DNA of 64,000 nt from a virus. The translations under genes were made by a program, and so were the position numbers. This document shows, piece after piece, positions 6,201 through 45,212 of the stretch. The notes under the pieces were generated by a model. That model saw nothing but the letters and a program-made list of their open reading frames with translations, searched no databases and was not told the origin of the DNA. How positions within the stretch are numbered: position 1 is the first letter of the stretch; each line of letters begins with the position of its first letter. The stretch is from the IMG/VR virus record IMGVR_UViG_3300006615_000024. One strand, given 5' to 3'.

Positions 6201-9200
6201 CTACGGTTAACATTAGAGGTAATTTAAATGTTTTAGGAACTACTACCACTGTAAATCAAACTGAAGTTAATGTACAGAATGCATTTGTGTTTGAAGGGGC
6301 TGTTGATAACGATTTCGAAACTACTCTATCTATTGCAGAACCAACTGCTGATAGAACAATAACTCTTCCTGACATAACAGGTACTCTAATTACATCAGCA
6401 GACACTGGGACTATCTCTAATGGGATGATAGCATCAACTGCTATAACTAGTGCAAAGATTGGTACTAACGCTGTCTTAACAAGTAAGATTAATGCAAGTG
6501 CTGTAACCACTGCTAAGTTAGCAAGTAATGCAGTTACTAATGCTAAACTTGCTGATGATGCGGTGCAAACAGATAGTATTGCTGATGGAGCAGTTACAGT
6601 TGGTAAGATAACAGGGCTTACTGATTTAGGTAGTGGGACAGTAATTAGTTCAACAGAGAGAACTAAACTGTCAGGCATTGAAGCGTCAGCAGATGTAACA
6701 GATGCAACTAATGTTACGGCGGCAGGGGCTGTAATGGATGGAGACTTTACTAGTAACGGATTCATGAAAAGAACAGGAGCAGGAAGTTACACTGTTGACA
6801 ACAGCAATTATCTAACTTCACTATCTGTTACTGGGCTTTCAGATATTAATGATTTTGATTTAGACTTAAGCAGTGTTAGTGCATCACACGATAGTTTAGC
6901 GTCTGCTAAAGCAATTAAAGCATATGTAGATGCTAATGGAGGAGGAGGTTCATTCAATTCTTTCAATATTAAAGACGGCGTTGGAACTACTGTCAATGTT
7001 ACAGATGGTAAGTTTGTTCAGTTTGCACAAGGAACAGGTATTACTGCAACATGGACTGACACTAACAGTGGAGCATCAACTGACCCATTTGACCTTACAT
7101 TAGTTAATACTGGTGTTCTTTCTAATGTAGCAGGTACGGGTATTGGGGTTAGTGGTGCAACTGGCAATGTAACTATCACTAATACAGACTTAGGTTCTGC
7201 ACAAAATATATTCAAAACAATAGCGGTTAGTGGGCAAGACAACATTGTTGCAGATTCAAATACTGATACACTAACACTAGTAGGTGGTGCTAATGTAAAC
7301 ATAACTACAACAGCAGGTTCTGATACAATTACTATTACTTCTACTGATACAGATACTCATCTAACTCAAGAAGAAGTTGAAGATTACGTTAGTGGGCTAA
7401 TTACAGCAGGTAGTAATATAACTGTACAATATACAGATAATGCAGGTAGTGCAGGTTCACTAAGTATTGCAGGAACAGCCAACGATGATGTATCAATTGA
7501 TAACCTAAAGGCTAGACTAAACTCTGATTTTGGTGGAGATTATACAATAGGTAGTCAGGCTGATGATACCCTAACAGTAAGTGGTTCTCTTACAGTTGGT
7601 GCAGATTTAATTGTTAGTGGGGATACTATAACAATGAACACTTCTACTTTAACAGTAGAAGACCCTTTGATTGCTTTAGGAAGTAATAATACCGCAGATG
7701 CAGTTGACTTAGGTTTCTATGGTAAATATGTTGATGGTAGTACTATCAAATATACAGGGTTGTTTAGAGATACATCAGATAGTAACAAGTGGAAGTTATT
7801 TACTGATACAGGTAATACTCATGCCGCCCCTACTACTACGGTTAATACAACAAGTGGTTTTACTTTAGGTACATTAGTAGCCGCTACTTTTGAAGGTGGT
7901 TTAACAGGTAACGCTACAACTGCAAGTACTTTGGCAACTGCTAGAACAATAGCAGGAGTTTCGTTCAACGGTTCAGCCGACATTAACATACCAATAAACA
8001 ACTTAACAGGAACATTAACTGCGGCAAATGGTGGTACTGGGTTAACATCCATTTCTACATTATTAAACAGTAATGTATCATTAGCGGTTGCAGACTTATC
8101 TGATATTGCTTCACTTGATACTGATATAAGTTCAGTTAGTAGTAGTGATGATACCCTTGCTTCTGCTAAGGCTATCAAAACCTATGTAGATGCTCAGTTT
8201 GCAGGAGCAGGTTCAGGAGATATGACTGGTGTTGATATTACAGCAGGAGACGCAATAACAGTATCTCAAAGTAATACAACAGCAGGAAATTACACTGCTA
8301 CAATAAGTGTATCAGGATTAGGTGTTGCACAATTAGCAGGAAGTGCATTACAATTAAGTTCTGAATCATTCAATAATAACGATACAAGTCTTATGACTTC
8401 TGCCGCCATTGAAGATAAGATTCTGTCTTATGGATATGGTGTGGGAACAGGTGATGGAGATATTACTAGTGTAGTCGCCGGAGTAGGTTTGAGTGGAGGA
8501 GCGACTACTGGTGACGCTACACTTAACCTTGACTTTTCTGAACTAACAGATATGACAGGAGACATAGCAGGAACTACTGAGTTTATCATACAAGATGGAA
8601 CTACTGAATCTAGAAAGGCGGCTTCAGAGATTAAACTGTCTTACTTCAATAATGATTCTAATTGGAATAACTATGTTCATCCAACGGGAGCAGGGAACAA
8701 CCATATTCCAACAGGAGGTTCAGCAGGACAATTCCTAAAGTACAGTTCTTCGGGTACTGCTTCTTGGGCTACACCATCTTACACAACAGAGGAACAAATA
8801 GAAGATTTCATTGCGGCAATGATTACTGCGGGAACAAATATAACTAGTACATATGATGATACTGCGGGAACACTAACACTATCTTCAACTGATACTAATA
8901 CTCAACTATCTGATGCTCAAGTAATTGCTAAGACTTTAACAGGTTTAAGCACAGCAACAGGTGGAGCAGTTGCCTCATCTGATTCTATACTGGTGGCGTT
9001 TGGCAAGTTAGAAAAGAGAGTAGCACTAAACGATGCTAAAACAACTAACTCTGACACTACTTACAGTGAAGCAACAAGTTCCGACTTAGGTCTAGTTAAG
9101 ATTGGCTACACTGAATCGGGTAAGAATTACCCAGTTGAATTATCATCAGGTCAGATGTTTGTTAACGTCCCTTGGACTGATACCAACACCAATCTAAACC

Positions 9201-12200
9201 TATTAAACGATGGTACTTTATCTGCTAATAGTGCTACTTCTGCGGCTAGTCAACAGTCAATTAAAACATATGTTGATACTTCAGTTGCTAATTTAGTTGC
9301 TTCTGCTCCTGAAGCATTGGATACTCTAAATGAACTAGCAGTTGCCTTACAATCTAACGATTCAGATATTACTGGTATTACTACTGCTTTAGGTAACAGA
9401 CTCAGAATTGATGTTAACAACCAAGGTTTATCTTCTACACAACAAGGATATGCATTAGATAACTTAGGTATTACTGCATCATTAACAGAATTAAACATAC
9501 TTGATGGTGGGTTATCTGCTTCTGATATTCCAAATATAGGAGCAGGAAAAATTACTAGTGGAACATTGAGCCGAAACACAACAGGAACTGCGGCAGGACT
9601 TTCATCAACATTAGCAATATCAAGTGGAGGAACAGGAGCAACTTCTGCACCAATGATTGGAGTAGTTACTGCGGCTAATGCGGGTGCGGCGAGAACAGTA
9701 TTAGGATTAGGAACAGCATCAACATTATCAGGTACAGGTGCAGTTGCTAACGGTAATGCAGGGTTAGTAACAGGAGATGTTGTCTTTGATTACATAGCGG
9801 CACAGAACTTTGCATCTAGTGGTGCGTCTAACTTTGTTGTTGGGGATATAACAGGACAGTCTGCATTAACAAGTGGACTTCATGCGACACAAGATGAACT
9901 TGTTATTAGCGATAATGGCGCACTAAAGAAGGTGGGTATTGGTGTATTGCAAACTTATATGCAAAACTCATTAACATTCACAACAGATACTCAAAGAACC
10001 GCAGGAGCATTATTGGACTTAAACGGCAATGCGTTGGATGTTGACTTGTCTGAATTGACTGATATGACAGAAGATTGGACAGCATCAGAAGATGAGTTTG
10101 TAGTATTGGATAATGGTGTCCAAAAGAGAAAACTATCTTCAGAACTATTCGGTTCTAACGCATTCAACTCAACTGCATATCTAACAGCACACCCTAACAT
10201 TAGTGCGGCTACTTCAGTAGATAATAGTGGTAGAACATACATACAAGATATTACTCTTGATAGTAATGGACATATTACTGGAATTGTTTCTGCTACTGAA
10301 ACTGTTACTGACAGTGGTAATACTACTTACGGTATTTCTGCTGTTGATGGTGATAACACTGATGAAGAAAAGATTCGATTAACTGGTAGTGATTCTAGTA
10401 CTGATGATGTAGTACTTGAAGCGGGTACTGGATTAAGTGTTGCTCGTAGTGGAGATAAGATTACTTTTACAAATACTTCTCCTAATGTATCTACTAACTT
10501 ATCAGTGAGTAGAGATGGAACTAAATTACATGTTGTATCATCTGACGGTAATAATGCCGAACTACCTTTAGCAGATACAAATAATTGGGGTGTTATGTCT
10601 GATGAAATGTTTGATAAACTAGATGGTATAGAAGCATCAGCAACGGCTGACCAAACTGCTTCTGAGATTACTGCCTTGTTGAATAGTGTAGCAAGTTATA
10701 CTCTAGGAACAAATGCAGGAACAATTACAGTAGGTAATGACTTAACTGTTGCAGGGGATTTAATAGTTAGCGGAACAACAAGCACAATTAATACTGCTAC
10801 TGTTGAAGTAGAAGATAACATTCTACAATTGAATACTACACAAGGTACTCCTGATACTGCTACTGCGACTACAAGCGGTATAAGCGTTTATCGTGGTAAT
10901 GGTGTAACTCAAGCATCTCTTATCTTTGATGATGCTGATGATACTTGGGATTTGACAAATGCTCTTACTGTTGCAGGTACGAATGGAGTAACTCTTGATT
11001 CGGGTTCTATTAAAATTAAAAATAGTGGCGCACAGTCTTTTATTGATTTCTATTGTGAAGTATCAAATCTACATTATTTGAGATTACAAGCACCTGCTCA
11101 TTCATCATTTAGCGGTAATCCTACTGTTACTTTACCCGCTACGGCAGGGACATTAGCATTAACAAGCGGTAATGTGGCTACTGCTACTAAGATTGCTTCT
11201 ATAACAAATAGCAATATTGTTCAATTAACCGATGCTCAAACATTAACAAATAAAACAATTAATGCGAGTAATAATACTCTAAGTAATATTGCTAATAGTG
11301 CTTTAACTAATAGTGCTATTACTATTGATGGAACATCTGTTTCTCTTGGTGGAAGTGTCACCACTAATAATGATAATACGTTTAGAACAATAGAGTTAGA
11401 TACAAATGGTAATGGTTCTGCTAATAATACTCTAACTGCAACTGAAACACTAAGACTAAAGAAAGGCAGTAATATAACTTTAGCAGAAACAGATGGTGTT
11501 GTAACTATTTCTTCTGCTAATACTGTTTACTCCCATCCTACACATGATGGAGATGATATTAGTATAGATACAGGTGCTTTAACAGGTGCAACCGTTATAT
11601 CAGATTTAGATTTTAATGTAACTACTGATACATTAGGACACGTTACAGATGCTAATGCTACAATAGCAACAAGAAACTTAACATTAGCAAACTTAGGCTT
11701 TACAGGAGATGCCGATGCTACTGATGACCAAACCGCAGTAGAGATAATTACATTATTAAACTCAGATTTAGGTGGTGATTTTACAATAGGAAACCAAGCA
11801 GATGATATTGCTACATTTACAGGTCATGTTTCTGTTGGGGGTAATTTAACAGTAACAGGCACAGTAACTACAAACAATGTAGAAACTGTAAGCACAAGTA
11901 ATGGTGTTATCTTTGAAGGCTCAGGTAATGCTGATACTGAAATCACACTAAAGGGAGGAACAGTCAGTGGTAATGATAAAACAATCTTCCTACCTAATGC
12001 AGATGGAACAGTTGCATTAACAAGTCAATTACATGATGCGGTTACTTTAGGAAATACAAACTATCTCAGCATTTCAGGACAAGTGATTACTGGTGGAACT
12101 GTTCCTGTTACAAGTGGTGGAACTGGTTCTACTTCTGCTCCTATGGTTGGTGTGATTACTGCGGTAAACCAAGCGGCGGCAAGAACTGCATTGGGGTTAG

Positions 12201-13393
12201 GAGCATTGGCTACTCTTGATACAGTAGGGTCAGCAAGAATTACTAACGACTCAATATCGGAAGTAGACCTTAAAGTAACAAATACTCCGTCTGCATCTGA
12301 AGATAATTATCTTTTGAGTTATGACCACGCTACCACAGGTTTCACTTGGGTTGCTCCTGTTTCCAGTGGAATAGCATTAGATGATATTAGTGTTACAGTC
12401 GGTGGTGCTACGGGTACTGGCGGTAATTTAGTATATGATAATACTACTGGTGATTTCACCTTTACTCCGACTCTTAACATAGGAGGTAATTCTGCAACTT
12501 CAACTGTTTCGGCAAACAATTCTACTGATGAAAATAACTATCTTACCTTTGCTGCAAATGCTACGGCTTCAGGTAGTTTAGGATTAGAAACAGATACAGC
12601 GTTATACTTCAACCCGTCACAAGATACGTTATATGTTCCTTATGTTTCTGCAACAAACTTAACTGCTAGTAATTTAATAAGTGCTACTAATGGAATAAAC
12701 ATAACTGGTAATAATCAAGGGATTAGTCTTTCAGGTACAAATAACTTCGTTAAAACTGACAACCTAAAAAATGATACTTTGATGACAATCGAAACTACTG
12801 CTAATAATGCTAATATCAAAATAAGCCCTAATGGTAATGGAAATGTTATAGTTGGTACTGATAGTGGTTCAGGTCTAGTGAACATTAGTTCTCCAATATA
12901 CAAAACAGGTGTACAGTTTGATATAACTGAAACTGCACATACTTCTACTGCAAGCAATCTAGCAAATAGCGGTTTATCATATGCTCAGAAAAGAGGTATA
13001 ACTAAAATACAAGGTAGAGTAGCACCTTTATCTTCTGCTTTATCAAATGGTTCAAATGTGGCTATTACGGTTTTACCTACTGGAGCAGTACATGGTAGTA
13101 ACTGTTCGTATAGAGGTATTAGAGGAACTGTACATATTGACGCAGGAATATCAGGTTCAGGTAATTTTGTTTTGACTCAAGACTTCATTGCTAATGATAG
13201 AGACGGAAGCGGAACTTGGGCCTTTGTTTCTTCAAATGCTGTATTCGAAGGAAGGTCTGACTTTCCTTACTATATCAGTTGGGCTGAAATAACTAGTGAT
13301 GATATGCAATTAAAAATAACAAACAATACTGGTGGAGATGTAGGTACGGGTCTTACAATTTGGTGGGATTTAACGTTGTTCCCTGAAGCATAA
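3242..13393 (+). CDS. Giant (3383 aa) tail fibre/adhesin-like protein with internal repeats
   Basis: G/S/T/N/D-rich, with recurrent LTVxGDLxVSGxTxT...VED, AIKxYVD and YxHP modules typical of marine phage fibres. Sits in the tail module. Confidence 0.8.
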   Translation: MTTSARTNPNFISTLTLTASNQDRLTDGTDNIHSAIINSLNIASGGNRIVRGFDITLSDADTYTRYTLGNNNFFLRDGILTQIANGEHTNQTVHMQSTSDNTYAVLVIAADNTLAIRNHTIKDKVAPLTNDDIPIAVIEIAGNSAPDAVTRKVQYLGYEQTNQGLSIIDNNTETIRINKEGTITKGSGTLTLPSTTGTIALTGTTIAKTASDSDADAIKSLVSSASDSNVFTDADHTKLNAIAANANNYSLPTAAANTLGGIKVGTNLSISGSGVLSSTDTNTQRSDTEIKNLVGGMFSSNTETGINAVYQSSDGTIDLTITGGDDDVSVTNLETRLAQINTATTIGNGVALTTGGDLTVTGDLTVSGSTTTLDVTNLAIEDNTILLNKNQAGNSTTNAGIEVERGNYTNVQLKWNETSDRWTFTNDGNNYFNIPITSELANPYTHPSYSTTNINTSGAIIIDNISTNSTGHITAMGTRTLSLADLGYTGSTDANTYVHPNHSGDVTSSADGATTIASNAVTTAKINNSAVTTSKIANNAITNVKVDSNAAIAQSKIDGLVSALSGKEPSLTISDGLDRTGATLKLDISGLSNENGIDRTADFVAFHDNSVGLKKVNLANIFAKLTAGDIPNLDGSYRAVGTQIVNADISNGANISADKIASGTTNKVFTSTLESKLSGIEAGAEVNVNADWNSGSGDSQILNKPTIPSGNQIIDWTANGAGTIHASNYVNTQYTVGDGGLSQKNFTTALYDKLVGVAANANNFSLTTGSVTNAHLAGSIANSKLDDIAQSKVTGLTTALNSKVENLSDLSITASAAELNILDGVSGVSSTEIGHLDGVTSSIQTQLNSKLSSLALAGLTDVSSFDTSISSGASGSGIPSTLAVKTYVDGKATVDTTYSIVTENGLDGSGNNDPAVKTIRLTDNTSGTGSVFHLAMGAGLGISRNAESNTLTLTNTGSTLSKSTLSPVLASYNGTETLNIGDTDNDTTVNIRGNLNVLGTTTTVNQTEVNVQNAFVFEGAVDNDFETTLSIAEPTADRTITLPDITGTLITSADTGTISNGMIASTAITSAKIGTNAVLTSKINASAVTTAKLASNAVTNAKLADDAVQTDSIADGAVTVGKITGLTDLGSGTVISSTERTKLSGIEASADVTDATNVTAAGAVMDGDFTSNGFMKRTGAGSYTVDNSNYLTSLSVTGLSDINDFDLDLSSVSASHDSLASAKAIKAYVDANGGGGSFNSFNIKDGVGTTVNVTDGKFVQFAQGTGITATWTDTNSGASTDPFDLTLVNTGVLSNVAGTGIGVSGATGNVTITNTDLGSAQNIFKTIAVSGQDNIVADSNTDTLTLVGGANVNITTTAGSDTITITSTDTDTHLTQEEVEDYVSGLITAGSNITVQYTDNAGSAGSLSIAGTANDDVSIDNLKARLNSDFGGDYTIGSQADDTLTVSGSLTVGADLIVSGDTITMNTSTLTVEDPLIALGSNNTADAVDLGFYGKYVDGSTIKYTGLFRDTSDSNKWKLFTDTGNTHAAPTTTVNTTSGFTLGTLVAATFEGGLTGNATTASTLATARTIAGVSFNGSADINIPINNLTGTLTAANGGTGLTSISTLLNSNVSLAVADLSDIASLDTDISSVSSSDDTLASAKAIKTYVDAQFAGAGSGDMTGVDITAGDAITVSQSNTTAGNYTATISVSGLGVAQLAGSALQLSSESFNNNDTSLMTSAAIEDKILSYGYGVGTGDGDITSVVAGVGLSGGATTGDATLNLDFSELTDMTGDIAGTTEFIIQDGTTESRKAASEIKLSYFNNDSNWNNYVHPTGAGNNHIPTGGSAGQFLKYSSSGTASWATPSYTTEEQIEDFIAAMITAGTNITSTYDDTAGTLTLSSTDTNTQLSDAQVIAKTLTGLSTATGGAVASSDSILVAFGKLEKRVALNDAKTTNSDTTYSEATSSDLGLVKIGYTESGKNYPVELSSGQMFVNVPWTDTNTNLNLLNDGTLSANSATSAASQQSIKTYVDTSVANLVASAPEALDTLNELAVALQSNDSDITGITTALGNRLRIDVNNQGLSSTQQGYALDNLGITASLTELNILDGGLSASDIPNIGAGKITSGTLSRNTTGTAAGLSSTLAISSGGTGATSAPMIGVVTAANAGAARTVLGLGTASTLSGTGAVANGNAGLVTGDVVFDYIAAQNFASSGASNFVVGDITGQSALTSGLHATQDELVISDNGALKKVGIGVLQTYMQNSLTFTTDTQRTAGALLDLNGNALDVDLSELTDMTEDWTASEDEFVVLDNGVQKRKLSSELFGSNAFNSTAYLTAHPNISAATSVDNSGRTYIQDITLDSNGHITGIVSATETVTDSGNTTYGISAVDGDNTDEEKIRLTGSDSSTDDVVLEAGTGLSVARSGDKITFTNTSPNVSTNLSVSRDGTKLHVVSSDGNNAELPLADTNNWGVMSDEMFDKLDGIEASATADQTASEITALLNSVASYTLGTNAGTITVGNDLTVAGDLIVSGTTSTINTATVEVEDNILQLNTTQGTPDTATATTSGISVYRGNGVTQASLIFDDADDTWDLTNALTVAGTNGVTLDSGSIKIKNSGAQSFIDFYCEVSNLHYLRLQAPAHSSFSGNPTVTLPATAGTLALTSGNVATATKIASITNSNIVQLTDAQTLTNKTINASNNTLSNIANSALTNSAITIDGTSVSLGGSVTTNNDNTFRTIELDTNGNGSANNTLTATETLRLKKGSNITLAETDGVVTISSANTVYSHPTHDGDDISIDTGALTGATVISDLDFNVTTDTLGHVTDANATIATRNLTLANLGFTGDADATDDQTAVEIITLLNSDLGGDFTIGNQADDIATFTGHVSVGGNLTVTGTVTTNNVETVSTSNGVIFEGSGNADTEITLKGGTVSGNDKTIFLPNADGTVALTSQLHDAVTLGNTNYLSISGQVITGGTVPVTSGGTGSTSAPMVGVITAVNQAAARTALGLGALATLDTVGSARITNDSISEVDLKVTNTPSASEDNYLLSYDHATTGFTWVAPVSSGIALDDISVTVGGATGTGGNLVYDNTTGDFTFTPTLNIGGNSATSTVSANNSTDENNYLTFAANATASGSLGLETDTALYFNPSQDTLYVPYVSATNLTASNLISATNGINITGNNQGISLSGTNNFVKTDNLKNDTLMTIETTANNANIKISPNGNGNVIVGTDSGSGLVNISSPIYKTGVQFDITETAHTSTASNLANSGLSYAQKRGITKIQGRVAPLSSALSNGSNVAITVLPTGAVHGSNCSYRGIRGTVHIDAGISGSGNFVLTQDFIANDRDGSGTWAFVSSNAVFEGRSDFPYYISWAEITSDDMQLKITNNTGGDVGTGLTIWWDLTLFPEA

Positions 13394-22758: not shown

Positions 22759-23086
22759 TTTTATTCCTCTTTTTAATTATTTTTTCTACTTCTTCTATGT
22801 TAGCAATGATACATCTATCACACTTACAGTCTCTACCATGCTCAGGTGGAGGGGTTTCTATTACGTTCATCTTAGGCATTCCGTTTTCTACATATACGGA
22901 ATAACCCAAGACAAACTTAGGTTCATTGAACAACACGGTTTGTGCTATGAAATCCTCTTTTAGTTCAACTACATCATCTCTTTCTTCTTCTTTATTGAAG
23001 TACTTATTATAGAGAGCGAGTATCTTATCAGCCCTACGCTTGTTAGACCAAGATAAACTTCTGTAAAATCTACTTCTCAAAACCAA
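22751..23086 (-). CDS. Hypothetical protein (CxCxxC near the C-terminus)
   Basis: 111-aa ORF overlapping both neighbours in the operon. Confidence 0.5.
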   Translation of the reverse strand: MVLRSRFYRSLSWSNKRRADKILALYNKYFNKEEERDDVVELKEDFIAQTVLFNEPKFVLGYSVYVENGMPKMNVIETPPPEHGRDCKCDRCIIANIEEVEKIIKKRNKNE

Positions 23087-23994
23087 TCCTCCACACTACT
23101 TTGTTTTCTATCTCGGTATATTTGGGTTATATCCCAACCCATTGCTTCATAAATAGGTTCTGCCTTACTAATAATAGAACTAGCATAATGCCTGTAATCG
23201 GGTGTATAACTAGATAATCCTTCTAATGTCATTGCAGACACATAGTTAGGAACTACGTCATTTCTATTAAGAGGATGAAAGTAAGTATCGTTCAAGTCTT
23301 TGACTCGTAGATACAGATAAGAATCATCAATCATGTTATCAGGGTTCTTTGTATTATGATATAATACACCTTCAATACCTGAACCTATTGTTGGCCTCTT
23401 ACCTTTCATAGTTATGAAACTAGGTTTATTACAACATGGGAATCTTTTACCATCAACAATATTAGCAAGTTCATGCAGGTGATACTTAGATGTTTTACTA
23501 AACAAACGAATACAAGTAGAACACTTTACCTGAAAACGTTCTTCTCTAAACCTACTACGTTGGGCTAACATTGATTTATCAATGTCACCATTAAGAACCT
23601 TAAAGTATTCTTCGTGTAAATAGTTAGTAATGTCTTCTTCAGACTCTTCCTTAACCCACCTATCTAAAACCTCTAGTTGAATCTTCTTTGCTAATGGAGT
23701 AATTGCTACTCTCTTAGCAGTAAAACCCGTCATAGTAAACTCCAAATCATCTAGGTGCTTACCATCTTTCCATGAGATTAAACCTGCGTTTCTGTTTTTC
23801 TTACATCCTACACCTAAAGTCTTGAAGAACTTCTCAAACTCAAGTGTTACAGGATGTTCTTCTAAACCTAGAACATTAGGAAATATCCCTCTAACATGTT
23901 CGTTCAACTCATCTAATACTAGTTGTGCCTTTTCAACACTGTCATCTTCCATCTTAACATAGATAGAATCTGTATGTCCATAAACTACTTTCAT
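23077..23994 (-). CDS. polB: Family B DNA polymerase, C-terminal part (motif C, palm/thumb, PIP box)
   Basis: VVYGHTDSIYV (YGDTDS variant), LEFEK, KKNRNAG, GFTAKR; C-terminal QSSVEDWF PIP box. Confidence 0.9.
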   Translation of the reverse strand: MKVVYGHTDSIYVKMEDDSVEKAQLVLDELNEHVRGIFPNVLGLEEHPVTLEFEKFFKTLGVGCKKNRNAGLISWKDGKHLDDLEFTMTGFTAKRVAITPLAKKIQLEVLDRWVKEESEEDITNYLHEEYFKVLNGDIDKSMLAQRSRFREERFQVKCSTCIRLFSKTSKYHLHELANIVDGKRFPCCNKPSFITMKGKRPTIGSGIEGVLYHNTKNPDNMIDDSYLYLRVKDLNDTYFHPLNRNDVVPNYVSAMTLEGLSSYTPDYRHYASSIISKAEPIYEAMGWDITQIYRDRKQSSVEDWF

Positions 23995-24212
23995 ATTATA
24001 TTCACATCCTGCAATAGAGATATTAAACCATAGAAGAATACACCTACTGCAAGATACTTTAGAATAACATAACCATCTTCAATCAACTCTATTGTTAGTC
24101 TCTGAATCTTTTCGGCTCTAGATGGAGCAAACTCTTCTATCATCTTTCTATTCATTTCTTCAACTTCTTCTTGTAGTTGTTCTACATCTATCTTTGCTGT
24201 TTTAATTGGCAT
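23991..24212 (-). CDS. Small protein with a C-terminal TM helix, inserted between the PolB halves
   Basis: 73 aa; GYVILKYLAVGVFFYGLISLL hydrophobic segment; overlaps both polB ORFs. Confidence 0.6.
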   Translation of the reverse strand: MPIKTAKIDVEQLQEEVEEMNRKMIEEFAPSRAEKIQRLTIELIEDGYVILKYLAVGVFFYGLISLLQDVNII

Positions 24213-25893
24213 TTATATCCCTCACTTTGAAAGCGGCTTCTCTGATTGCCTGTCTTGCACTAGCAGTGACACTAGCGGCTAAAGCAACATTAGCCCAACC
24301 AAATCCCTGATACGCAATGATGCCATAAAAAGACGCAGAAAGCCTCTTTACTGCTAACTGATTATTATTCCACTTAGCGTATTCATCTTTAGTTGTTGCT
24401 TGTTTCATCTTCTTCTTATATTCGTCTCTTAACTCTTTTAAGTCAAGTACTGCTTTAGGTAGTAAACCTAACTCATCTGTTTTGAAATACATCATCTCTT
24501 CTCTTTTAACTTCACTAAAATCTCTAGGTGTTGCTAGGTTAACAGCAAAGTCTGTTGGTTCTTCTGAAATAGTCTCCCAAGATATATTACGTGAAATTAT
24601 CATCGAAGGATATAGCCCTGCAAAATCAAATGCGGCAACGTTCTGATGAAGGCCATTTGTACCTTCACTGAGAGGGTCGTATATCATTGCCCCCTCATAC
24701 TCTTTACGCTCACCTTTCTCCCCCGTAGGGGCTTTCCAAGTAGCATTACGCATGAAATATATCCCTCCCATATTGCTTGCATAGAAACATGCATCAAATG
24801 GTGCTTTCAGTAATCGTTGTAATGATAGAACAGCGTCAACACAATGATTCTCTTCATCAATTCTTTTGATTAACTCAACATCCTTGAAAGCATATTCTAG
24901 ATAGGTATCTGAATCTTCTAACCATGCCCTTCTAAAGAACTCATTCTTATCAGGAAACTTCTCACTCACTAACTTAACATCACCAAGTACACTTTCTGAA
25001 ACATAGTCCAAAGAGAGTGAAGGTAAAGTTCCACGTTGAGCATCATTCCATTGTCGCTCAAATACTAAATCAAGTGCTACTGTAATCATACCTTTAATTG
25101 GTTGAGATACAGGAGAGTAACCTTCTACTCTTGATTTCCATATAGTTGGCTTGTTCTTCTTCCAACCAATACCAGTTATCTCATCAAATGGAGATAGTAG
25201 TCTTGGGTCTATTCCGTGATGTACCATTCTAGTGAATAGTACAGGTATGTCGAACTTCCATCCGAACCATGAGATAAGCATATCAGGTTCTTTGTCCATA
25301 GCAAATGCTAGAAACCCTGTAAGCATATTATGCTCTCCTGTATATCTATGAAGAATGAAGTTATCATTATCTTTCAATACTACATTCCTAGCCTCATCAG
25401 GATACCAAGCAAATACATGATACTCATCATCATAGTTATCGTATATTACAATACAAGTAATTGCTTCATCATACTTACCACCTTGTTGCCATTCCATATC
25501 CCAATACCATCTACGTAAGTTTTGTTCAGGTATTTCTTTTACTTCATCAACTGCATATCTATAATGATGTTGAACATCACCCTCATATGTTTTCATACCT
25601 CTAGCCTCTAAAACTATTCTTACATCTTTAGCATATTTAGGATGTTTGGGTTGCCAAGTTACTTTGTGAAGTCTGTCACCGTTTAGGTTAACCTCATCTG
25701 TACTTTCAAACATTACTTTAATTTGAAATGTGCCTAAGTTATCCTTACACTTGAAAGTAAATGGTAGGGCAGAGTGTGCTTTATCTGCATACATGTAAGG
25801 TTGAAAGTCGGAGTGAGACACAATCTTACTTTGTATCTCATCTCCTTCTCTCCATCTTAATCCTATTCCATTTTCTGTTTTACATATTATCAT
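24202..25893 (-). CDS. polB: Family B DNA polymerase, N-terminal part (3'-5' exonuclease, motifs A and B)
   Basis: WDMEW, KFDIPVL, YAFKD exonuclease motifs; YEGAMI; DFAGLYPSMII (motif A); KRLSASFYG (motif B variant). Confidence 0.92.
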   Translation of the reverse strand: MIICKTENGIGLRWREGDEIQSKIVSHSDFQPYMYADKAHSALPFTFKCKDNLGTFQIKVMFESTDEVNLNGDRLHKVTWQPKHPKYAKDVRIVLEARGMKTYEGDVQHHYRYAVDEVKEIPEQNLRRWYWDMEWQQGGKYDEAITCIVIYDNYDDEYHVFAWYPDEARNVVLKDNDNFILHRYTGEHNMLTGFLAFAMDKEPDMLISWFGWKFDIPVLFTRMVHHGIDPRLLSPFDEITGIGWKKNKPTIWKSRVEGYSPVSQPIKGMITVALDLVFERQWNDAQRGTLPSLSLDYVSESVLGDVKLVSEKFPDKNEFFRRAWLEDSDTYLEYAFKDVELIKRIDEENHCVDAVLSLQRLLKAPFDACFYASNMGGIYFMRNATWKAPTGEKGERKEYEGAMIYDPLSEGTNGLHQNVAAFDFAGLYPSMIISRNISWETISEEPTDFAVNLATPRDFSEVKREEMMYFKTDELGLLPKAVLDLKELRDEYKKKMKQATTKDEYAKWNNNQLAVKRLSASFYGIIAYQGFGWANVALAASVTASARQAIREAAFKVRDINAN

Positions 25894-36223: not shown

Positions 36224-36446
36224 CTTCTTTCGCCTTCCTTCTTTCGTGCATCACATCTTCAAACGCATGAAGTTGTGCTTCAGTCATATGACTAGTAAAT
36301 ATAGTACCACTAATCATATGAATATCAGTAAGATATGTGTTTTTCTTCAACATACCTTGTGCTTCTTCATTAATGCAATACCCACTAATGTCATCTACCT
36401 TCAGAGTAGTGACACCTGAATTAGTTACTAGACTAATTAATCTCAT
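36216..36446 (-). CDS. Hypothetical protein
   Basis: 76-aa ORF overlapping its neighbours. Confidence 0.55.
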   Translation of the reverse strand: MRLISLVTNSGVTTLKVDDISGYCINEEAQGMLKKNTYLTDIHMISGTIFTSHMTEAQLHAFEDVMHERRKAKEDE

Positions 36447-36952
36447 TCCTCTTCCCCACTGTATGAACTCTGTTGTTCTAATAGCCCATAGAAAACTTTC
36501 TTTGCTACAATAGTTTCAGGATTGAATGCTAGATATTGGTTATCACCAAGAACAATAGCAGACTTTAGTATAGGTTTCCAAGTGTTAATTGTTGACCAAT
36601 CAGTTGAACTGAAATAAGCCTGACCAAAAGGATGAGTGTGAATCCAACACTTAATCGGTATTCTCATCGGTGCGCCGTTTACTAGTTCATCTTCATGCCC
36701 TTCGAATGATACATAGGATGGGTCGCCACTGCTGATGTATAAATCATCTTTATCATCAACAACTACTTGTACTTCCATTCCTTCTAATGTATCTATTGAC
36801 ATTTTCCAAATTGCTGTTAGGAAGGCTTCAGTGGAATTGTTAGGGAAGAGATATTCTATATCATCTGCCATATCATTATGCACATCTCTTATGTGCTGTT
36901 TCCAATCAAACTCCTTCATTGCCTTTTCATTTTCTGTTACTTCTTTTTCCAT
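36443..36952 (-). CDS. JAB/MPN+ (JAMM) metalloprotease
   Basis: Upstream Glu (MEVQVV) plus HTHPFGQAYFSSTD = HxHx7SxxD. Confidence 0.9.
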   Translation of the reverse strand: MEKEVTENEKAMKEFDWKQHIRDVHNDMADDIEYLFPNNSTEAFLTAIWKMSIDTLEGMEVQVVVDDKDDLYISSGDPSYVSFEGHEDELVNGAPMRIPIKCWIHTHPFGQAYFSSTDWSTINTWKPILKSAIVLGDNQYLAFNPETIVAKKVFYGLLEQQSSYSGEEE

Positions 36953-36954
36953 TT

Positions 36955-37098
36955 TTATTCCTCCTCATTTTTCTTTGCTGACGCTCTCTCTAATTGAATC
37001 CAATTAGAAAACGTTAGACTTTCGTTTATTCTTCCATCAAGTAATGCTTGTTCATAATCATCACGCATCTCTTGAAACTTTCTTCCCATCTTTCCCAT
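36955..37098 (-). CDS. Hypothetical microprotein (47 aa); not in the ORF track
   Basis: MGKMGRKFQEMRDDYEQ...; exactly fills the gap between annotated ORFs. Confidence 0.5.
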   Translation of the reverse strand: MGKMGRKFQEMRDDYEQALLDGRINESLTFSNWIQLERASAKKNEEE

Positions 37099-37337
37099 TA
37101 TATTCCCCCCATATTATCTATAATCATATCTTGACTGTTAACAAACTCATGATAGGCTCGATGACCCGCAATGAATCCACCTGCATGTCTTTTAGTTCCT
37201 AAGAACTCCTCACCACAAACAGGACAAGTAACCTTTACTATCTCTGCTTGTTGGTAATATCCATCTGTTGAAATTACATTCATAACTTCGTCAATCATTT
37301 GTTCATCTATGTCTTCTATATTCTCTTCATCACTCAT
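37098..37337 (-). CDS. C2H2-like Zn-finger protein
   Basis: CPVCGEEF...HRAYH. Confidence 0.6.
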   Translation of the reverse strand: MSDEENIEDIDEQMIDEVMNVISTDGYYQQAEIVKVTCPVCGEEFLGTKRHAGGFIAGHRAYHEFVNSQDMIIDNMGGI

Positions 37338-38185: not shown

Positions 38186-38400
38186 TGAAATACCTCCACC
38201 TGAGAAACTTTCAGAGTACTAGTAGCATCCCAATCATGAATCCATACTTCAGTTTGTACATCATCGTCTCGTATTCCCATTTCCCTTGCTGAATAGTAAA
38301 TATCTCTATCATTGAAAAACTTCTCTAGAAACTTATCTATTTGTTCAGGATATCCTGTCAGTGTTAGCATACTATCTGCTCCCCTACTTGGTGTAGACAT
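38182..38400 (-). CDS. Hypothetical protein
   Basis: 72-aa ORF directly downstream of the E1 gene. Confidence 0.5.
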   Translation of the reverse strand: MSTPSRGADSMLTLTGYPEQIDKFLEKFFNDRDIYYSAREMGIRDDDVQTEVWIHDWDATSTLKVSQVEVFQ

Positions 38401-38990
38401 TAAACATTCACCACCATTTTATCAGCAACGTTCTCATTGTCTTGCCACCATCTTTGAATCCACTGTACTGCAATACCTGCAATTGCAACTTGCATACAGT
38501 TTACTTGTTCAGGACTACCATCCCAATCTCCACCTTGACAACTGAATGAACCTTCTGCACCTGCTAACAAATCATCAACGAGATTAGCGTTAACCTTGTA
38601 AGAGATTAATGCCGCATTACGGCCTTGCGCTCTCAAATCTAACCACTTAGTTTTAGCATCATCACCATAACCTTGACGATATAGTAATCGCCTTACTGCT
38701 AGGTTATCAGCACAACAAACTACTAGGTCATACCCTTTCAATTGCTTCTCTACTAATACTTGATACGGTTGAGGCTTTACAGGTTTTAACCCATTTACCT
38801 TCAATCTATTATTGAGAGCATTAACCTTTGTCTGCCCTACCATATCAGCCATGAAGTTCTGATATGTTAGATTCTTCTCTTCTAACTTATCGTCATCAAA
38901 TACTGTTATGTCATAAATACCAATTCTCGATAGGAAGTCAACTAAATAACTTCCAATTCCACCTGTTCCTATTATCATTACTTTTCTCAT
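38400..38990 (-). CDS. ThiF/E1-family Ubl-activating enzyme
   Basis: IIGTGGIGS, DDDKLEEKNLTYQ, KVNAL, VCCADN, DLRAQG; candidate catalytic Cys in FSCQ. Confidence 0.9.
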   Translation of the reverse strand: MRKVMIIGTGGIGSYLVDFLSRIGIYDITVFDDDKLEEKNLTYQNFMADMVGQTKVNALNNRLKVNGLKPVKPQPYQVLVEKQLKGYDLVVCCADNLAVRRLLYRQGYGDDAKTKWLDLRAQGRNAALISYKVNANLVDDLLAGAEGSFSCQGGDWDGSPEQVNCMQVAIAGIAVQWIQRWWQDNENVADKMVVNV

Positions 38991-39865
38991 TCTCTTATTC
39001 CTCCAATTATTTTATTTACATTATATTTATTCAAGATAGTTCTTTCTATCTGTATTAGTTCACATATTTTTCTTATGTGTATTCTCAATGTTACTTCACT
39101 AATATTGACTGTTGATGCTAGTTCTCTCTGTAATACAGGATAATCTAACATTTTACATGCAATATATACTGCTCCTGCGATTTCACCATTACCCACTCTA
39201 ACGTTAACAGTTTCATAATAGTTAGATACATAGTCAACGAATGTATAAACAGGTTTTCTATCTTTGATATCTGCCCCTGACTTATCTAAACATACAGTCA
39301 CTACATCATGAACATCTCTAACACCAAAGATATGAGACTTACGATAGAACTTGGCTATCTTTTTAGAAGCCCTCATTATCTTACTTCTATGAACCCCTGT
39401 TGTTTTCTGTAAAGACTTGAGCGATACAAAAATACTTTCATCCTTTAGAATGAAGTATGCTAAACCTGCGGCTCTAACTTCTGTTGGTAGACCAACTAAT
39501 ACTCTATTTCGTTGTAACTCTTGATAGTAGTGTTCTACCTCTCTTCTTAATGAGAGTTTATACGGTTTGTAAGGAGATAGATACATCATACATGTATTGT
39601 GAGTTGCTATATCTCCTTCTGACCAAAACTTACTCTTTGCCTCGGTCTTAATATGGTTGAGTCTTAGATTATGTTTTACAGACGTTTTACTTCTATTACC
39701 GAATTGTATTGTACTGCCCATACCATATTTAGAATCTGATTCCATTGCACTAGATGTTTCCTCGAATATCTCGACATTAAGCACAAGACCACAATCAGAA
39801 CATATGTGGTAGCCCAACCTATCATCAAACGATGATTCAGTTGAGCCACACTCCATACACTTCAC
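38987..39865 (-). CDS. tfb: Transcription initiation factor B (TFB/TFIIB) homologue
   Basis: N-terminal Zn ribbon CMECG...CSDCGLV; two cyclin-like repeats (AAGLAYFI; AGAVYIACK...QRELA...ISEVTLR). Confidence 0.85.
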   Translation of the reverse strand: MKCMECGSTESSFDDRLGYHICSDCGLVLNVEIFEETSSAMESDSKYGMGSTIQFGNRSKTSVKHNLRLNHIKTEAKSKFWSEGDIATHNTCMMYLSPYKPYKLSLRREVEHYYQELQRNRVLVGLPTEVRAAGLAYFILKDESIFVSLKSLQKTTGVHRSKIMRASKKIAKFYRKSHIFGVRDVHDVVTVCLDKSGADIKDRKPVYTFVDYVSNYYETVNVRVGNGEIAGAVYIACKMLDYPVLQRELASTVNISEVTLRIHIRKICELIQIERTILNKYNVNKIIGGIRE

Positions 39866-41166
39866 GCTTTAGCCTCCAATGCTTTCTTTGCCGCATAGTC
39901 CTGTTCTTTCTGTTTAGACCAAGAGTTTAGTTTGGACATATCCATACGGTAATTATCAGGGTTTACTAGGTTTCTTTCAGATGCTTGCTTCACGTAATCA
40001 ACAATAGTATAGATACTCTTGGCAGATGTTTCATCATTCATTAGTGCTAATGCTCTAGCAGTTAATTGGTCGCCAATGCTTGAGTTCCTATGAATATTAT
40101 CAATACATATTGGGCCAGTGAGTGAATGACCTTTCCAAGTTTTAGAATCGTCTGAATCTTTACCATTAATCAAGTATGTGTTAACATTCTGATGACCAAG
40201 TTTCATACCTTTCTTCTCATCAACAACAACCCAATCAGCAACTTTACCTCTAACGAATAGAGCCTTGTTCATTGGGTTTCTGAATTGAACCAATCTAATG
40301 TTTGGATATTCAGCATCCATATCATGTAGTAGTTTTGTTGCTCTGTCTTCAACCATATTCTGCTTTCTGTTTTGCATTAACCATGCTACACATAACTTTA
40401 GTTCTGTTGGACTGGGCATATTACCCATTAGTAATCGCCATAGTTTTGAGGGGTCTGCTCTGTACCAAGTCTTGGACTTTGATTGACCAAATCTAAATGT
40501 ATTAATGAAGACATTCAAATCTTTAAGGGTAATAGCACCCCAAACACCTTCTGAAATCTCTAATGCACATTCAGTCTCACTGATAACTTTAGTGTTAATC
40601 AACACCTCATGCCTTTCACCTACATGATAAAAGTTGTAATTACTTCTATTCTCAATAGCATGAAGAACATTAGGTGGATAGTGAACAACCTTCTCAATAT
40701 AATCATCCATTACAAGAACGTCTCTTACAAACGCACCACGTATTATTATCTTGGATAGAACAACTGCGAGGTCTTTCTTACTTACCCTAACTCCATCAAT
40801 ATGGTGTCCACTGCCCTTTCGACCATAAACAATAATACTTTCACCGTTATGATATTTGAAAGTTATAGTGTTCAAGAAGTTTTCATTCTGTATTTTAGTC
40901 AACAAAGCGTTAGTTATTAGTGCAGAAGTACTTGTTAGTACAGGGTCTTGTTCACCTTTAACATTTGATAGGCTTGGCCTAGTTACTTGCCACTGTAATT
41001 CTCCAAATTGATTTAAACTATTTCTATTAGTTCTGAACTTATTTGTATGTTGATGCCAAACACTTCTAAACAAGTTTTTCTTTGAAGACCTCAATAAAAA
41101 ACTACTAGTTGTGTAATTCCTTGTGTCATCTCCCACTGAGGGAATTATTACTTTTATTTTTACCAT
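39862..41166 (-). CDS. Hypothetical protein with a possible C-terminal E2-like (UBC) domain
   Basis: GPICIDN resembles the E2 active-site GxICL/ID motif; located between the E1 and Ubl genes. Confidence 0.4.
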   Translation of the reverse strand: MVKIKVIIPSVGDDTRNYTTSSFLLRSSKKNLFRSVWHQHTNKFRTNRNSLNQFGELQWQVTRPSLSNVKGEQDPVLTSTSALITNALLTKIQNENFLNTITFKYHNGESIIVYGRKGSGHHIDGVRVSKKDLAVVLSKIIIRGAFVRDVLVMDDYIEKVVHYPPNVLHAIENRSNYNFYHVGERHEVLINTKVISETECALEISEGVWGAITLKDLNVFINTFRFGQSKSKTWYRADPSKLWRLLMGNMPSPTELKLCVAWLMQNRKQNMVEDRATKLLHDMDAEYPNIRLVQFRNPMNKALFVRGKVADWVVVDEKKGMKLGHQNVNTYLINGKDSDDSKTWKGHSLTGPICIDNIHRNSSIGDQLTARALALMNDETSAKSIYTIVDYVKQASERNLVNPDNYRMDMSKLNSWSKQKEQDYAAKKALEAKA

Positions 41167-41449
41167 TTTTATTCACCTTTTTATTTTCTTTTTCCCAATG
41201 TTTGGCATCACCATAATTGTGTAAATACCATGCGTCTCTTTCTATATGAGAGGCAAGTTCTTCCATTGATTTGAAAGAACTATGCCCTCCTACAACAGCA
41301 CGTTCCATAGAATAATACAACTTATTGTATCTGAGATTACCACTCTTGTATAGTTTGAAACTCTTATCTAACAAAACCCTCTGAGGGATAGTTACACTAG
41401 TCCTAATAACATACTCAAAGTTAAGGAAATCTCTTTCTTTAATTAACAT
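41126..41449 (-). CDS. Hypothetical protein with an internal AVVGG
   Basis: 107-aa ORF between nrdJ and the E2-like gene. Confidence 0.5.
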   Translation of the reverse strand: MLIKERDFLNFEYVIRTSVTIPQRVLLDKSFKLYKSGNLRYNKLYYSMERAVVGGHSSFKSMEELASHIERDAWYLHNYGDAKHWEKENKKVNKNGKNKSNNSLSGR

Positions 41450-43517: not shown

Positions 43518-43718
43518 TTAATAGCCGCCGACAATAGCAGGGACTAGGTTCACATTATCAACAGTTGACCAATCTATGTTGGTTATGTTCTGTCTGCTTA
43601 CCATATCACCGTCAACATAAACCCAATGAGTTGGGTGTTCTGCTATCTGCTCAATCATCTCTGCACTAGATACTTCTAGTTCAGTGTGGCCTGTTTCATT
43701 CATTATTCGCAATTTCAT
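43518..43718 (-). CDS. Ubiquitin-like beta-grasp protein (ThiS/MoaD/SAMP-like) ending in GG-Y
   Basis: 66 aa: beta-beta-alpha, WVYVDGDMV, terminal strand VNLVPAIVGG followed by one extra Tyr. Confidence 0.8.
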   Translation of the reverse strand: MKLRIMNETGHTELEVSSAEMIEQIAEHPTHWVYVDGDMVSRQNITNIDWSTVDNVNLVPAIVGGY

Positions 43719-43750: not shown

Positions 43751-44026
43751 TTAAGACTCTGTTGACTGTCTTGCTTGGTTAAGCGTATTCTCTAATGATG
43801 AAATGTAGGATTTTAAGTCCTTCTTATCACCAAGGAGTTGTATCTGCATTGACTCGTAAACTTCAACCTTCTGTCTGAATGCTTGAATAGTTCCTTCTAA
43901 TCCTTTAGCATATTCTAGAAGACGATTGAAATCTTCTTGCAATGTGTTTACGGGTGTTTGCTCCACCACTGCTTCTTCTGTCACTTCTTCAGTTTCTTCT
44001 TTCATTTCCTTATTCTTCTTACTCAT
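43751..44026 (-). CDS. Coiled-coil hypothetical protein
   Basis: Heptad pattern, 91 aa. Confidence 0.6.
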   Translation of the reverse strand: MSKKNKEMKEETEEVTEEAVVEQTPVNTLQEDFNRLLEYAKGLEGTIQAFRQKVEVYESMQIQLLGDKKDLKSYISSLENTLNQARQSTES

Positions 44027-45212
44027 GAACTTCCCTCCATGTACCTTTTCTTACTACTGGCCAAGCATCAGTTTTTTTTAATACTTCTATCTCCTTAGAT
44101 GCTTGTTGTTTAGTAAGTAATGTCATATCCCCTTCATATCCTAATCCTTTTAGAAAGTTAAGTTGTGGCTCTGTTGCCTTGGTAGTCTTACGTGTCAGTA
44201 AAATCTCCTTTAACCTTTCGGCTTGCTTTACTGTTGGTTCGCCTCCTCTAGTGAATAATCGCTTCATATCTCTCAAAAAACCACGTTCCCAAGAATTAAT
44301 ACCATCTTCAAACGCATCAAAAACAGGGAAGCCAAAGTAGAGACATGCTTCCATAAACCTACGTTCTGCTACATCATGCTCTCTGAGTTTACTCATCTTA
44401 TCCTTAATGTCTAAGTCCAAGTTTTCTAGGAATACTTTCCTGTCTTCTACATACTTGTCCTCAACACCTAGTTGTTCTAGATAGTCATCAATGTATATTG
44501 AAAATAAATCCATATCACCTAACAACTTATCGTTAGGATAACCTCTAGTCTTACTCTGCGCTCTCTTGTTATCAGGATGATTCCATCTCCAAACAATAGA
44601 AGCCATTTGATAATCCTCTCTACCGAACTTACCTGAGCCTGTTTTTCTAATGTAAGTTACAGGACGGTATTCTTTGAGTTCAGTGTCATAGTATTTCTTA
44701 TCTGTCTTCTTAACGTTAAGTCTCAAGTCTAGGTCTTTGATTTCATCAAACAGGTTAGTAAACTCTTCACCTTCATCGTCCCACCATGCCTCTTTAATCA
44801 AAGTCTGAACAGCAACGTTCTTCCACTCTTCTATCTTTTCTTCAGTGATAGCACTAATAGGGATATTAAGTGTCTCAGACATGTGTCTTAGAACCATCCA
44901 ATTGTTAATACAAGTTGAACCAACAATCTCCTTAACATTGTTTACCGTGTTCTCTATTTCAAAGTGGTAAACAATATCTTTACCACATAGACAATTATGT
45001 GGATGACCACTAGGATGATTTAGAATAATATCTCTATATCTTCCATAAGGCGACCTCTTCCAAACATTACCTGTGATACGCCATTCTTTCTTTGCTATCT
45101 CATAGTCATCCGACTCAGATAATGCTAACAATCTTGAAGTTAAAGCAGGGTAATTATTACCTCTCTTTAAGTTCCTTTCATTATCTATATCATTCATCTG
45201 AATCTTCCCCAA
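44019..45212 (-). CDS. Hypothetical protein with a CxCG...VGSxC Zn motif and a C-terminal ATxxQ helical module
   Basis: NCLCGKDI...IVGSTCI; KATEPQLNFLKGLGY...TKQQASKEI. Confidence 0.6.
   Translation of the reverse strand: MGKIQMNDIDNERNLKRGNNYPALTSRLLALSESDDYEIAKKEWRITGNVWKRSPYGRYRDIILNHPSGHPHNCLCGKDIVYHFEIENTVNNVKEIVGSTCINNWMVLRHMSETLNIPISAITEEKIEEWKNVAVQTLIKEAWWDDEGEEFTNLFDEIKDLDLRLNVKKTDKKYYDTELKEYRPVTYIRKTGSGKFGREDYQMASIVWRWNHPDNKRAQSKTRGYPNDKLLGDMDLFSIYIDDYLEQLGVEDKYVEDRKVFLENLDLDIKDKMSKLREHDVAERRFMEACLYFGFPVFDAFEDGINSWERGFLRDMKRLFTRGGEPTVKQAERLKEILLTRKTTKATEPQLNFLKGLGYEGDMTLLTKQQASKEIEVLKKTDAWPVVRKGTWREVHE

Follow-up and report, generated by a model that had tools for sequence, protein, structure and literature searches.

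A candidate E2-like carrier among putative ubiquitin-like conjugation genes of a magrovirus-type archaeal virus

Does a virus of archaea encode an E2-type enzyme of its own? Ubiquitin-type tagging through an E2 step is a hallmark of eukaryotes and has lately been shown in bacterial anti-phage systems (Bil and CBASS Cap2). The question is raised by a stretch of 64,000 nucleotides (hereafter the window; G+C about 36%) from the IMG/VR virus record IMGVR_UViG_3300006615_000024, whose minus strand encodes, at 39862..41166, a protein of 434 residues (P0001) here called E2-like protein (E2L) and characterized through its open reading frame (ORF), its translation, its homologues and an AlphaFold2 model. 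In its surroundings are found the genes of a ubiquitin-like protein (Ubl) ending in Gly-Gly (GG) and a short tail, of a minimal E1-like adenylase (E1L) and of a JAMM/JAB metalloprotease. E2L is read here, with moderate confidence, as the E2-like thioester carrier of a Ubl conjugation system encoded by the virus itself, a virus of the magrovirus type with marine group II archaea as hosts. This reading is supported by the UBC-like fold predicted for the C-terminal domain, by an invariant cysteine at the E2 position and by the context of GG-tailed Ubl, E1L and JAMM genes. Since E2L stands among a Ubl, an E1L and a JAMM protease of viral origin, protein tagging is probably carried out by the virus on its own account.

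E2L, its conserved cysteine and its predicted fold

The E2L ORF, proposed in the initial annotation of the window, is real; it has an ATG start, a Shine-Dalgarno-like GGTGA box a few bases upstream and many homologues. The latter do away with the label of orphan given to the protein at the same time: a word-indexed search returned more than 200 homologues at E ≤ 1e-3, with identity down to about 31%, and HMMER, run exhaustively against 1.84 billion cluster representatives, gave, at the same threshold, 156 clusters (50% identity), nearly all of 360-490 residues. In IMG/VR, searched with an alignment of 33 sequences, 173 contigs have a relative of E2L, many of them of 80-100 kb and all magrovirus-like. 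Among prokaryotes, represented by one genome per species (185,579 species), the single match is NZMJ01000151.1, a 24-kb contig of a Maricaulis sp. metagenome-assembled genome, which is most likely a viral contig mis-binned with the bacterial sequences. Because just this one contig matched among the genomes of 185,579 prokaryote species, the family looks virus-specific. The phage GenBank collection gave neither a DNA nor a protein match.

The feature that first suggested an E2 was the segment GPICIDN, thought to correspond to the catalytic motif of these enzymes. The segment is present at residues 351-357, and the pattern that it fits, G-x-I-C-[LI]-D, has a single occurrence across all six frames of the 64-kb window, within the E2L ORF. 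Its cysteine, Cys354 (codon at 40105..40107, minus strand), is the candidate thioester cysteine; its conservation, on which the initial annotation had made the proposal depend, extends to 106 of the 107 aligned homologues, at identities down to about 20%, and the sole exception has a divergent C-terminus. A looser form of the motif, x-x-[IVFY]-C-[IV]-[DE]-[NDT], is kept in 81 of the 82 copies of the locus described below. In the model, Cys354 follows strand 4 (residues 329-336) and an extra fifth strand (347-353) and stands ten residues ahead of helix 2 (364-376). In E2s such as UbcH5 the catalytic cysteine is located between strand 4 and helix 2, and the predicted place of Cys354 matches it, as judged by the order of secondary structure elements and by alignment ranges and not by superposition.

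The His-Pro-Asn (HPN) motif that usually accompanies this cysteine had been reported as missing, and so it is: the sole H-x-N triplets of E2L are HTN40, HQN325 and HRN359, neither His325 nor His359 is conserved, and of HQN325 just Gln326, located before strand 4, is kept. No conserved histidine was found near Cys354 in the alignment of homologues, which argues against a papain-type protease. Also invariant, or almost so, in the C-terminal domain are G307, D311, W312, Q326, V328, I355, D356, G365, D366, Q367, R371, N377, D378 and T387, and its most conserved stretch is the loop and the start of the helix after Cys354 (SSxGDQ and R371). Equally conserved positions are found outside the domain, namely N173 (in ENRTPY), A201, E203 and W209 (in ALEISEGxW) and Q265-N266-R267; since residues 161-280 as a whole are as conserved as the region around Cys354, the functional core appears to be larger than a C-terminal E2 module.

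The domain that bears Cys354 comprises residues 266-410 (39937..40371, minus strand), for which a helix, a four-strand meander with a fifth strand, the Cys loop and three helices are predicted. The AlphaFold2 model of the whole protein, based on 107 homologues, has a predicted local distance difference test score (pLDDT) of 94 and a predicted template modelling score of 0.85. DSSP assigns strands to residues 290-295, 297-306, 311-315, 329-336 and 347-353, flanked by helices 268-286 and 364-376. The four strands named from the translation alone (IRLVQF, 290-295; ALFVRG, 302-307; WVVVD, 312-316; VNTYLING, 328-335) coincide with strands of the model, and helices do flank them.

A UBC-like fold was returned for residues from about 266 to 410 by four different structure searches. 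With the whole model, Foldseek found nothing in the PDB at E ≤ 1e-3, and E2s recur among the weak matches; Mediator subunits, which head that list, were rejected as too weak (E 6.5e-3, template modelling (TM) score 0.16). VIA-align, which is independent of Foldseek, placed nearly every match to the whole model on residues 267-409, and nearly all of these were chains of the UBC superfold (E2s, UEV, RWD, FANCL ELF, Cap2 and the Bub complex), with Z of 3.3-4.9. Residues 248-410, folded alone from 88 sequences, gave a pLDDT of 89, and the best 50 Foldseek matches of this domain model in the PDB are all canonical E2s (UbcH5, Rad6, Ubc13 and others), with probabilities of 0.69-0.97, E of 7e-3 to 6e-2 and TM of 0.32-0.45. 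In VIA-align the domain model reached Z of 4.4-5.5 over 110-125 residues, spanning the E2 core from its first helix through its last; E2S, for instance, aligned over 122 residues with Z 4.8, and lower values were found for the prokaryotic E2-like chains of Cap2 (7to3_A, Z 3.9), CdnG-E2 (8hsb_B, Z 3.7) and the Bub complex (9eav_D, Z 3.6). The ESM Atlas search with the domain was headed by a UQ_con cluster (TM 0.51, 128 residues aligned), and further matches there include an E2-CBASS cluster (TM 0.42/0.53) and a Prok-E2_B cluster (TM 0.42/0.43). Going by these predicted models, the fold of the C-terminal domain is probably UBC-like, which falls short of proof. The divergent E2 domain first suggested for E2L thus stands in part: a UBC-like fold is predicted and the cysteine is kept, and the scores lie at or below the usual marks of significance, with no profile link to any E2 family. 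Neither of the two results named at the outset as fatal to it, a fold other than UBC or an unconserved cysteine, was obtained.

Sequence searches, indeed, gave a uniform picture. E2L matched no model of Pfam (E ≤ 0.1), PHROG, PADLOC or NCBIfam; none of 88 sequences of the domain matched UQ_con in Pfam at E ≤ 10; the domain profile, compared with the sequences of the PDB, found no E2, its sole match being a chance one to a Miro GTPase (E 0.34); a six-frame search of the nearest virus record for UQ_con was negative; and an ESM Atlas search by features gave no usable match. By sequence, therefore, membership in UQ_con or Prok-E2 fails, and E2L is best described as a putative new family, with both its superfold and its kind of system already known.

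The same structure searches bear on an alternative in which the C-terminal domain would be a non-catalytic UBC/RWD/UEV-like module, Cys354 would be structural and E2L would act as a scaffold or Ubl-binding adaptor, the Ubl being conjugated directly by E1L in the way of UbaA. RWD, UEV and FANCL ELF chains score, with Z of 4.3-5.5 (4.7-5.5 for FANCL ELF), equal to true E2s in VIA-align, and in the ESM Atlas the clusters of CENP-O, an RWD protein, and of Med27 are on a par with UQ_con. An adaptor would also fit the absence of HPN, the existence of E2-free sampylation, and the secondary structure of the AlphaFold2 model at residues 75-172 and 175-265, where meander-plus-helix units are again found, as in tandem RWD proteins. 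Non-catalytic UBC-like domains, however, typically have no active-site cysteine, whereas E2L keeps Cys354 in nearly all homologues within an E2-like G-x-I-C-I-D, followed by the most conserved stretch of the whole domain (SSxGDQ and R371). We regard the adaptor as unlikely.

Some relatives of the domain were found at the margins of the family. Shorter matches to the domain are mostly gene fragments on short contigs, and a search for longer, fused forms of E2L found none, a negative result that is weak evidence. On a contig of 78 kb (positions 6001-6534 and 8183-8689) the C-terminal domain has a divergent counterpart, with GVCVDN as its cysteine motif and IDQ in place of GDQ, in the company of a ThiF-like gene and fragments of a thermosome (Cpn60_TCP1) gene. 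The 177-residue copy there lies in a region crowded with short gene calls, which may contain frameshifts, and its gene may itself be broken. The presence of such GVCVDN relatives on a thermosome-bearing contig suggests that the family extends past group B magroviruses, the group to which the window is compared below.

Neighbouring genes and conservation of the locus

The gene next to E2L encodes a protein of 292 residues (38987..39865, minus strand) resembling the transcription factor TFIIB/TFB and located between the E2L and E1L genes. It matches Zn_Ribbon_TF (E 7e-8) and the TFIIB repeat (E 1.8e-4), as well as the NCBIfam model of transcription initiation factor IIB, at an E of 6e-9 that stays under the cut-off of that model. 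The gene is full-length, with a zinc ribbon and cyclin-type repeats, and its product may be either a viral transcription factor that merely adjoins the other genes or a partner or target of theirs. The stop of E2L overlaps the start of the TFB-like gene (GTGA), whose own stop overlaps the start of E1L (ATGA); the overlap of 4 nt between E2L and the TFB-like gene recurs in 40 loci. On the other side of E2L, between it and the gene of a class II ribonucleotide reductase (RNR), an ORF of 107 residues (41126-41449, minus strand), with no family match, overlaps the start of E2L by 41 nt and is conserved in 48 of the 82 loci.

E1L, a minimal E1-like adenylase of 196 residues (38400..38990, minus strand), is recognized by ThiF (PF00899, E 4e-18). 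It matches models of ThiF, MoeB, UbaA and Cap2 E1-E2 proteins, including 32 PADLOC E1-E2 models, with all matches restricted to the Rossmann part, and its best NCBIfam matches are the ThiF and MoeB adenylyltransferases. Invariant among its homologues are GxGGIG, D32, D34, K55, C92-C93-x-D95-N96, R100 and GSFSCQ, which includes Cys151. The latter lies 56 residues past D95, a spacing that matches the crossover-loop cysteine of ThiF and MoeB.

The Ubl has 66 residues and ends in PAIVGG-Y. Its gene (43518..43718, minus strand) is located upstream of E2L, past the RNR gene. The match to ThiS (PF02597, E 0.039) is weak and aligned to the C-terminal end of the profile; ThiS is also the commonest Pfam family among the relatives of the Ubl (8 of 41, best E 8e-4). 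All 67 homologues end in GG plus 0-2 variable residues (Y, C, NQ, SL, RF, IR and others), with G64 and G65 invariant. Such an ending, GG followed by a short variable tail, is the signature in sequence of a modifier precursor that would need trimming by a protease. The Ubl gene is immediately preceded, in 67 of the 82 loci, by the gene of a protein of 397 residues (44019-45212, minus strand), with no Pfam family and with a stretch rich in cysteine and histidine, HPHNCLCGKD...GSTCINNW.

A candidate for the trimming protease is the JAMM/JAB metalloprotease of 169 residues (36443..36952, minus strand), separated from E1L by several small genes, in which HTHPFGQAYFSSTD fits the HxHx7SxxD motif. The residues E60, H105, H107, S115 and D118 are invariant in its family, and Prok-JAB is matched by 39 of 42 family members (best E 6e-5). 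Directly upstream of it, at 37098..37337 on the minus strand, lies the gene of a second GG-tailed small protein, of 79 residues and ending in MGG-I, which has an acidic N-terminus and a zinc-type motif CPxC...H...H (CPxC...GTKRHAGGFIxGHxxxHEF) and whose 51 homologues all close with GG and, after it, a single variable position (I, V, Q, A, T or L). From its sequence this protein, with no obvious beta-grasp, may be a second substrate processed by JAMM, and its membership in the system is uncertain.

The composition of this gene set leads to another alternative, a sulfur-carrier (thiocarboxylate) pathway of the kind of ThiS/ThiF, MoaD/MoeB, CysO/Mec+ or QbsE/QbsD, in which E2L would use or relay sulfur through Cys354, for example toward a thio-modified nucleotide or cofactor. 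The sole profile match of the Ubl is ThiS, E1L matches ThiF and MoeB adenylyltransferases best, and the cluster adjoins nucleotide-metabolism genes (RNR). Carriers with a short tail past GG trimmed by JAMM enzymes do exist: CysO/Mec+ and QbsE/QbsD are sulfur-carrier pairs of this type. Yet among the larger ORFs of the window no sulfur-transfer or thio-cofactor gene was recognized (rhodanese, cysteine desulfurase, PP-loop thiolase, ThiG/ThiH or MoaE-like), E1L, with its 196 residues, has no rhodanese domain, and the fold predicted for the domain of Cys354 is UBC-like and neither rhodanese- nor TusA-like. A sulfur pathway is held to be very improbable, the least probable of the alternatives considered here.

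The conservation of the gene set was followed in 82 loci, fetched with E2L identities down to 30%, whose ORFs were searched by jackhmmer. The TFB-like gene is present in 81 of them, E1L in 79, JAB in 78 and the Ubl in 67, always in the fixed order Ubl-(RNR)-E2L-TFB-like-E1L-...-JAB-ligase; the missing genes can be accounted for by loci truncated where their contig ends, and the block of E2L, TFB-like gene and E1L is intact wherever the locus is complete. The neighbourhood by which prokaryotic E2-like families are recognized, E1-like plus JAB plus Gly-ended Ubl, is thus found around E2L, in loci that all belong to one virus lineage. The marks of a Ubl conjugation system are likewise present: the invariant GG of the Ubl, GxGGIG, D95 and K55 of E1L and an intact JAMM motif.

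The lineage itself is indicated by other genes of the window. The family-B DNA polymerase is split in two genes (24202-25893 and 23077-23994, minus strand), which match positions 35-196 and 222-383, respectively, of the Pfam DNA_pol_B profile; the RNR, an RFC-like clamp loader, a three-domain ATP-dependent DNA ligase and an ERCC4 nuclease are also encoded. Group B magroviruses, which infect marine group II Euryarchaeota, are characterized by a split polymerase and an RNR (Philosof et al., 2017; PMC5434244), and for this reason the window is read as part of a magrovirus-type archaeal virus. Of the 31-letter words sampled, 54% are common to the window and the nearest virus record. A single ORF of 3383 residues (3242-13393, plus strand) has no Pfam match at E ≤ 1e-3, and the same holds for the adjoining ORFs of 921, 541 and 242 residues.

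Proposed mechanism and its weighing

What is observed is the genes, their order, their motifs with the degree to which these are kept, and the fold as predicted; all the chemistry of the proposed mechanism is conjecture built on them. The JAMM protease would cut off the one or two residues past the Gly-Gly of the 66-residue Ubl; E1L, with ATP, would then adenylate the exposed Gly65 and perhaps take the Ubl onto its invariant crossover-loop residue Cys151. From there the Ubl would be handed as a thioester to Cys354 in the UBC-like domain of E2L and transferred onto lysines of targets, which might be picked by residues 1-265 of E2L or by a partner such as the TFIIB-like protein. The JAMM enzyme might also reverse the tag.

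A bolder version makes E2L a self-contained E2/E3 hybrid of a new family. In it, E1L would charge the UBC-like domain at its cysteine, while the N-terminal and middle modules (with ENRTPY and ALEISEGxW) and the translationally coupled TFIIB-like factor would together direct the Ubl to proteins of the host, basal transcription factors or substrates of the proteasome for example; the zinc-binding GG-tailed protein of 79 residues (37098-37337) may be an alternative modifier. We find this version hard to favour at present and give it a low probability.

Several observations weigh against E2L as a thioester carrier. With regard to the protein, the HPN motif is absent, the place of Cys354 was derived from element order, and sequence and profile searches tie the domain to neither UQ_con, Prok-E2, E2-CBASS nor any other family. 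The fold scores are modest as well (Foldseek E above 1e-3, TM of 0.35-0.51, a root-mean-square deviation (rmsd) of about 4 Å over 110-125 residues and Z of at most 5.5); by VIA-align's own statement a Z below 8 may reflect a mere common arrangement, and an unrelated small alpha/beta protein, 7xml_D, reaches Z 5.1. With regard to the locus, all copies come from one lineage with a frozen gene order, so that finding these genes together is a weak argument for a link in function; the DNA ligase gene is found in the loci just as regularly, and the RNR gene separates the Ubl gene from E2L. Finally, E2-free archaeal sampylation shows that Ubl, E1L and JAB could work without E2L.

Much of this would be expected if the likeness of fold were that of a common alpha/beta arrangement and E2L had an unrelated role in replication or transcription, for example as a partner of the TFIIB-like factor, its gene merely adjoining those of the Ubl system. 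Besides scores under the significance marks with the tool's own warning, the lack of a profile link to E2 families and the single lineage, such a role would fit the tightest coupling of E2L, which is with the TFIIB-like gene, and the highly conserved polar motifs ENRTPY and ALEISEGxW outside the UBC-like domain. Against it, independent search methods converge on one superfold over the whole domain, an invariant cysteine stands at the E2 position, and the block of E2L, TFB-like gene and E1L is intact in complete loci; an unrelated role is judged doubtful. Neither for nor against a binding of the partners speaks a three-chain complex prediction of E1L, Ubl and full-length E2L, which scored 0.88, and 0.85 when E1L was replaced. 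In three studies, RNA libraries made from seawater include contigs that match parts of the genes for E2L, the TFB-like protein, E1L, JAB and the Ubl at 95-99% identity; these libraries may hold DNA, so that transcription is not proven, and nothing follows from the parts left without coverage.

If E2L is indeed a thioester carrier, viruses of the magrovirus type carry a complete tagging kit of their own, with a carrier enzyme from a family unseen by profile libraries. The E2 superfamily would thereby gain a new branch, and work on mechanism a tractable minimal pair of E1 (196 residues) and E2; the question would also arise of what the virus tags, its own virion or the transcription and proteolysis machinery of the host. 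In the case of an E2/E3 hybrid, ubiquitin-style tagging would be the means by which an abundant virus of the ocean takes control of the archaeon that it infects.

Comparison with known systems

Canonical E2s (UQ_con, PF00179; UbcH5/UBE2D, Rad6, Ubc13 and UBE2S) resemble E2L in the predicted order of helix, four-strand meander, Cys loop and C-terminal helices, in one invariant cysteine within G-x-I-C-[IL]-D (the E2 consensus being G-x-I-C-L-D) and in the genes of an E1-type adenylase and a GG-ended Ubl, which lie near E2L. E2L differs from them in having no match to their hidden Markov model and no HPN, in an identity of 7-16% in structural alignments, in the extra fifth strand before the cysteine, in a variable insert past strand 4 and in about 265 conserved N-terminal residues.

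Among prokaryotes a close parallel is given by the class 6d operons of Iyer and Aravind, now called Bil systems. They have in common with the locus described here a Gly-ended Ubl, an E1-like protein, a JAB and an E2-like protein without the classical histidine. Bacterial Ubl-JAB-E1-E2 operons, with an E2-like protein of this kind, were first predicted by Iyer et al. (2006; PMC1779556). E2L, by contrast, is matched by no Prok-E2 model of PADLOC or Pfam and has three times the size of a BilB-type E2; the magrovirus genes do not form one compact operon, the RNR gene separating the Ubl and several small genes the JAB; the E2-like and E1-like genes have a TFIIB-like gene between them; and the carrier is an archaeal virus and not a bacterial defence island.

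Archaeal sampylation (SAMP1-3, UbaA and HvJAMM1) operates, to our knowledge, without any E2. It is similar in its archaeal host, in a ThiS/MoaD-type GG-ended Ubl, in a ThiF/MoeB-type E1 and in a JAMM protease, and differs from the viral gene set, which has an additional Cys-bearing UBC-like protein coupled to the E1L gene, a Ubl with a tail behind GG and a much shorter E1L (196 residues). Among the known sampylation targets is a basal transcription factor, TBP2 (PMC4895103).

As for the fold, FANCL, composed of ELF, a double RWD and a RING, provides with its ELF domain the best VIA-align match of all (Z 5.5, 86 residues aligned, rmsd 3.1), and repeated meander-plus-helix units along the whole of E2L recall FANCL and tandem RWD proteins. 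ELF and RWD domains are non-catalytic, in contrast to the role proposed for E2L, which also has no RING; moreover, whole-model searches did not demonstrate an RWD likeness of its N-terminal units and gave, for the N-terminal residues (about 250), scattered weak matches (the immunity protein DddI, Z 4.6; YkuJ, Z 4.0; others).

In the literature searched, no paper describing a magrovirus E2L system was found, and the searchable magrovirus papers make no mention of ubiquitin, ThiF, JAB or TFIIB. The sole report found in a search of the archaeal-virus literature concerns Nidhogg, a virus of Asgard archaea whose ThiF/E1-like genes have been suggested to target pathways of the ubiquitin type (bioRxiv 10.1101/2021.07.29.454249). 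The parts described there are E1-like genes only, held to hijack components of the host, whereas the magrovirus-type virus described here encodes Ubl, E1-like, JAMM and E2-like parts.

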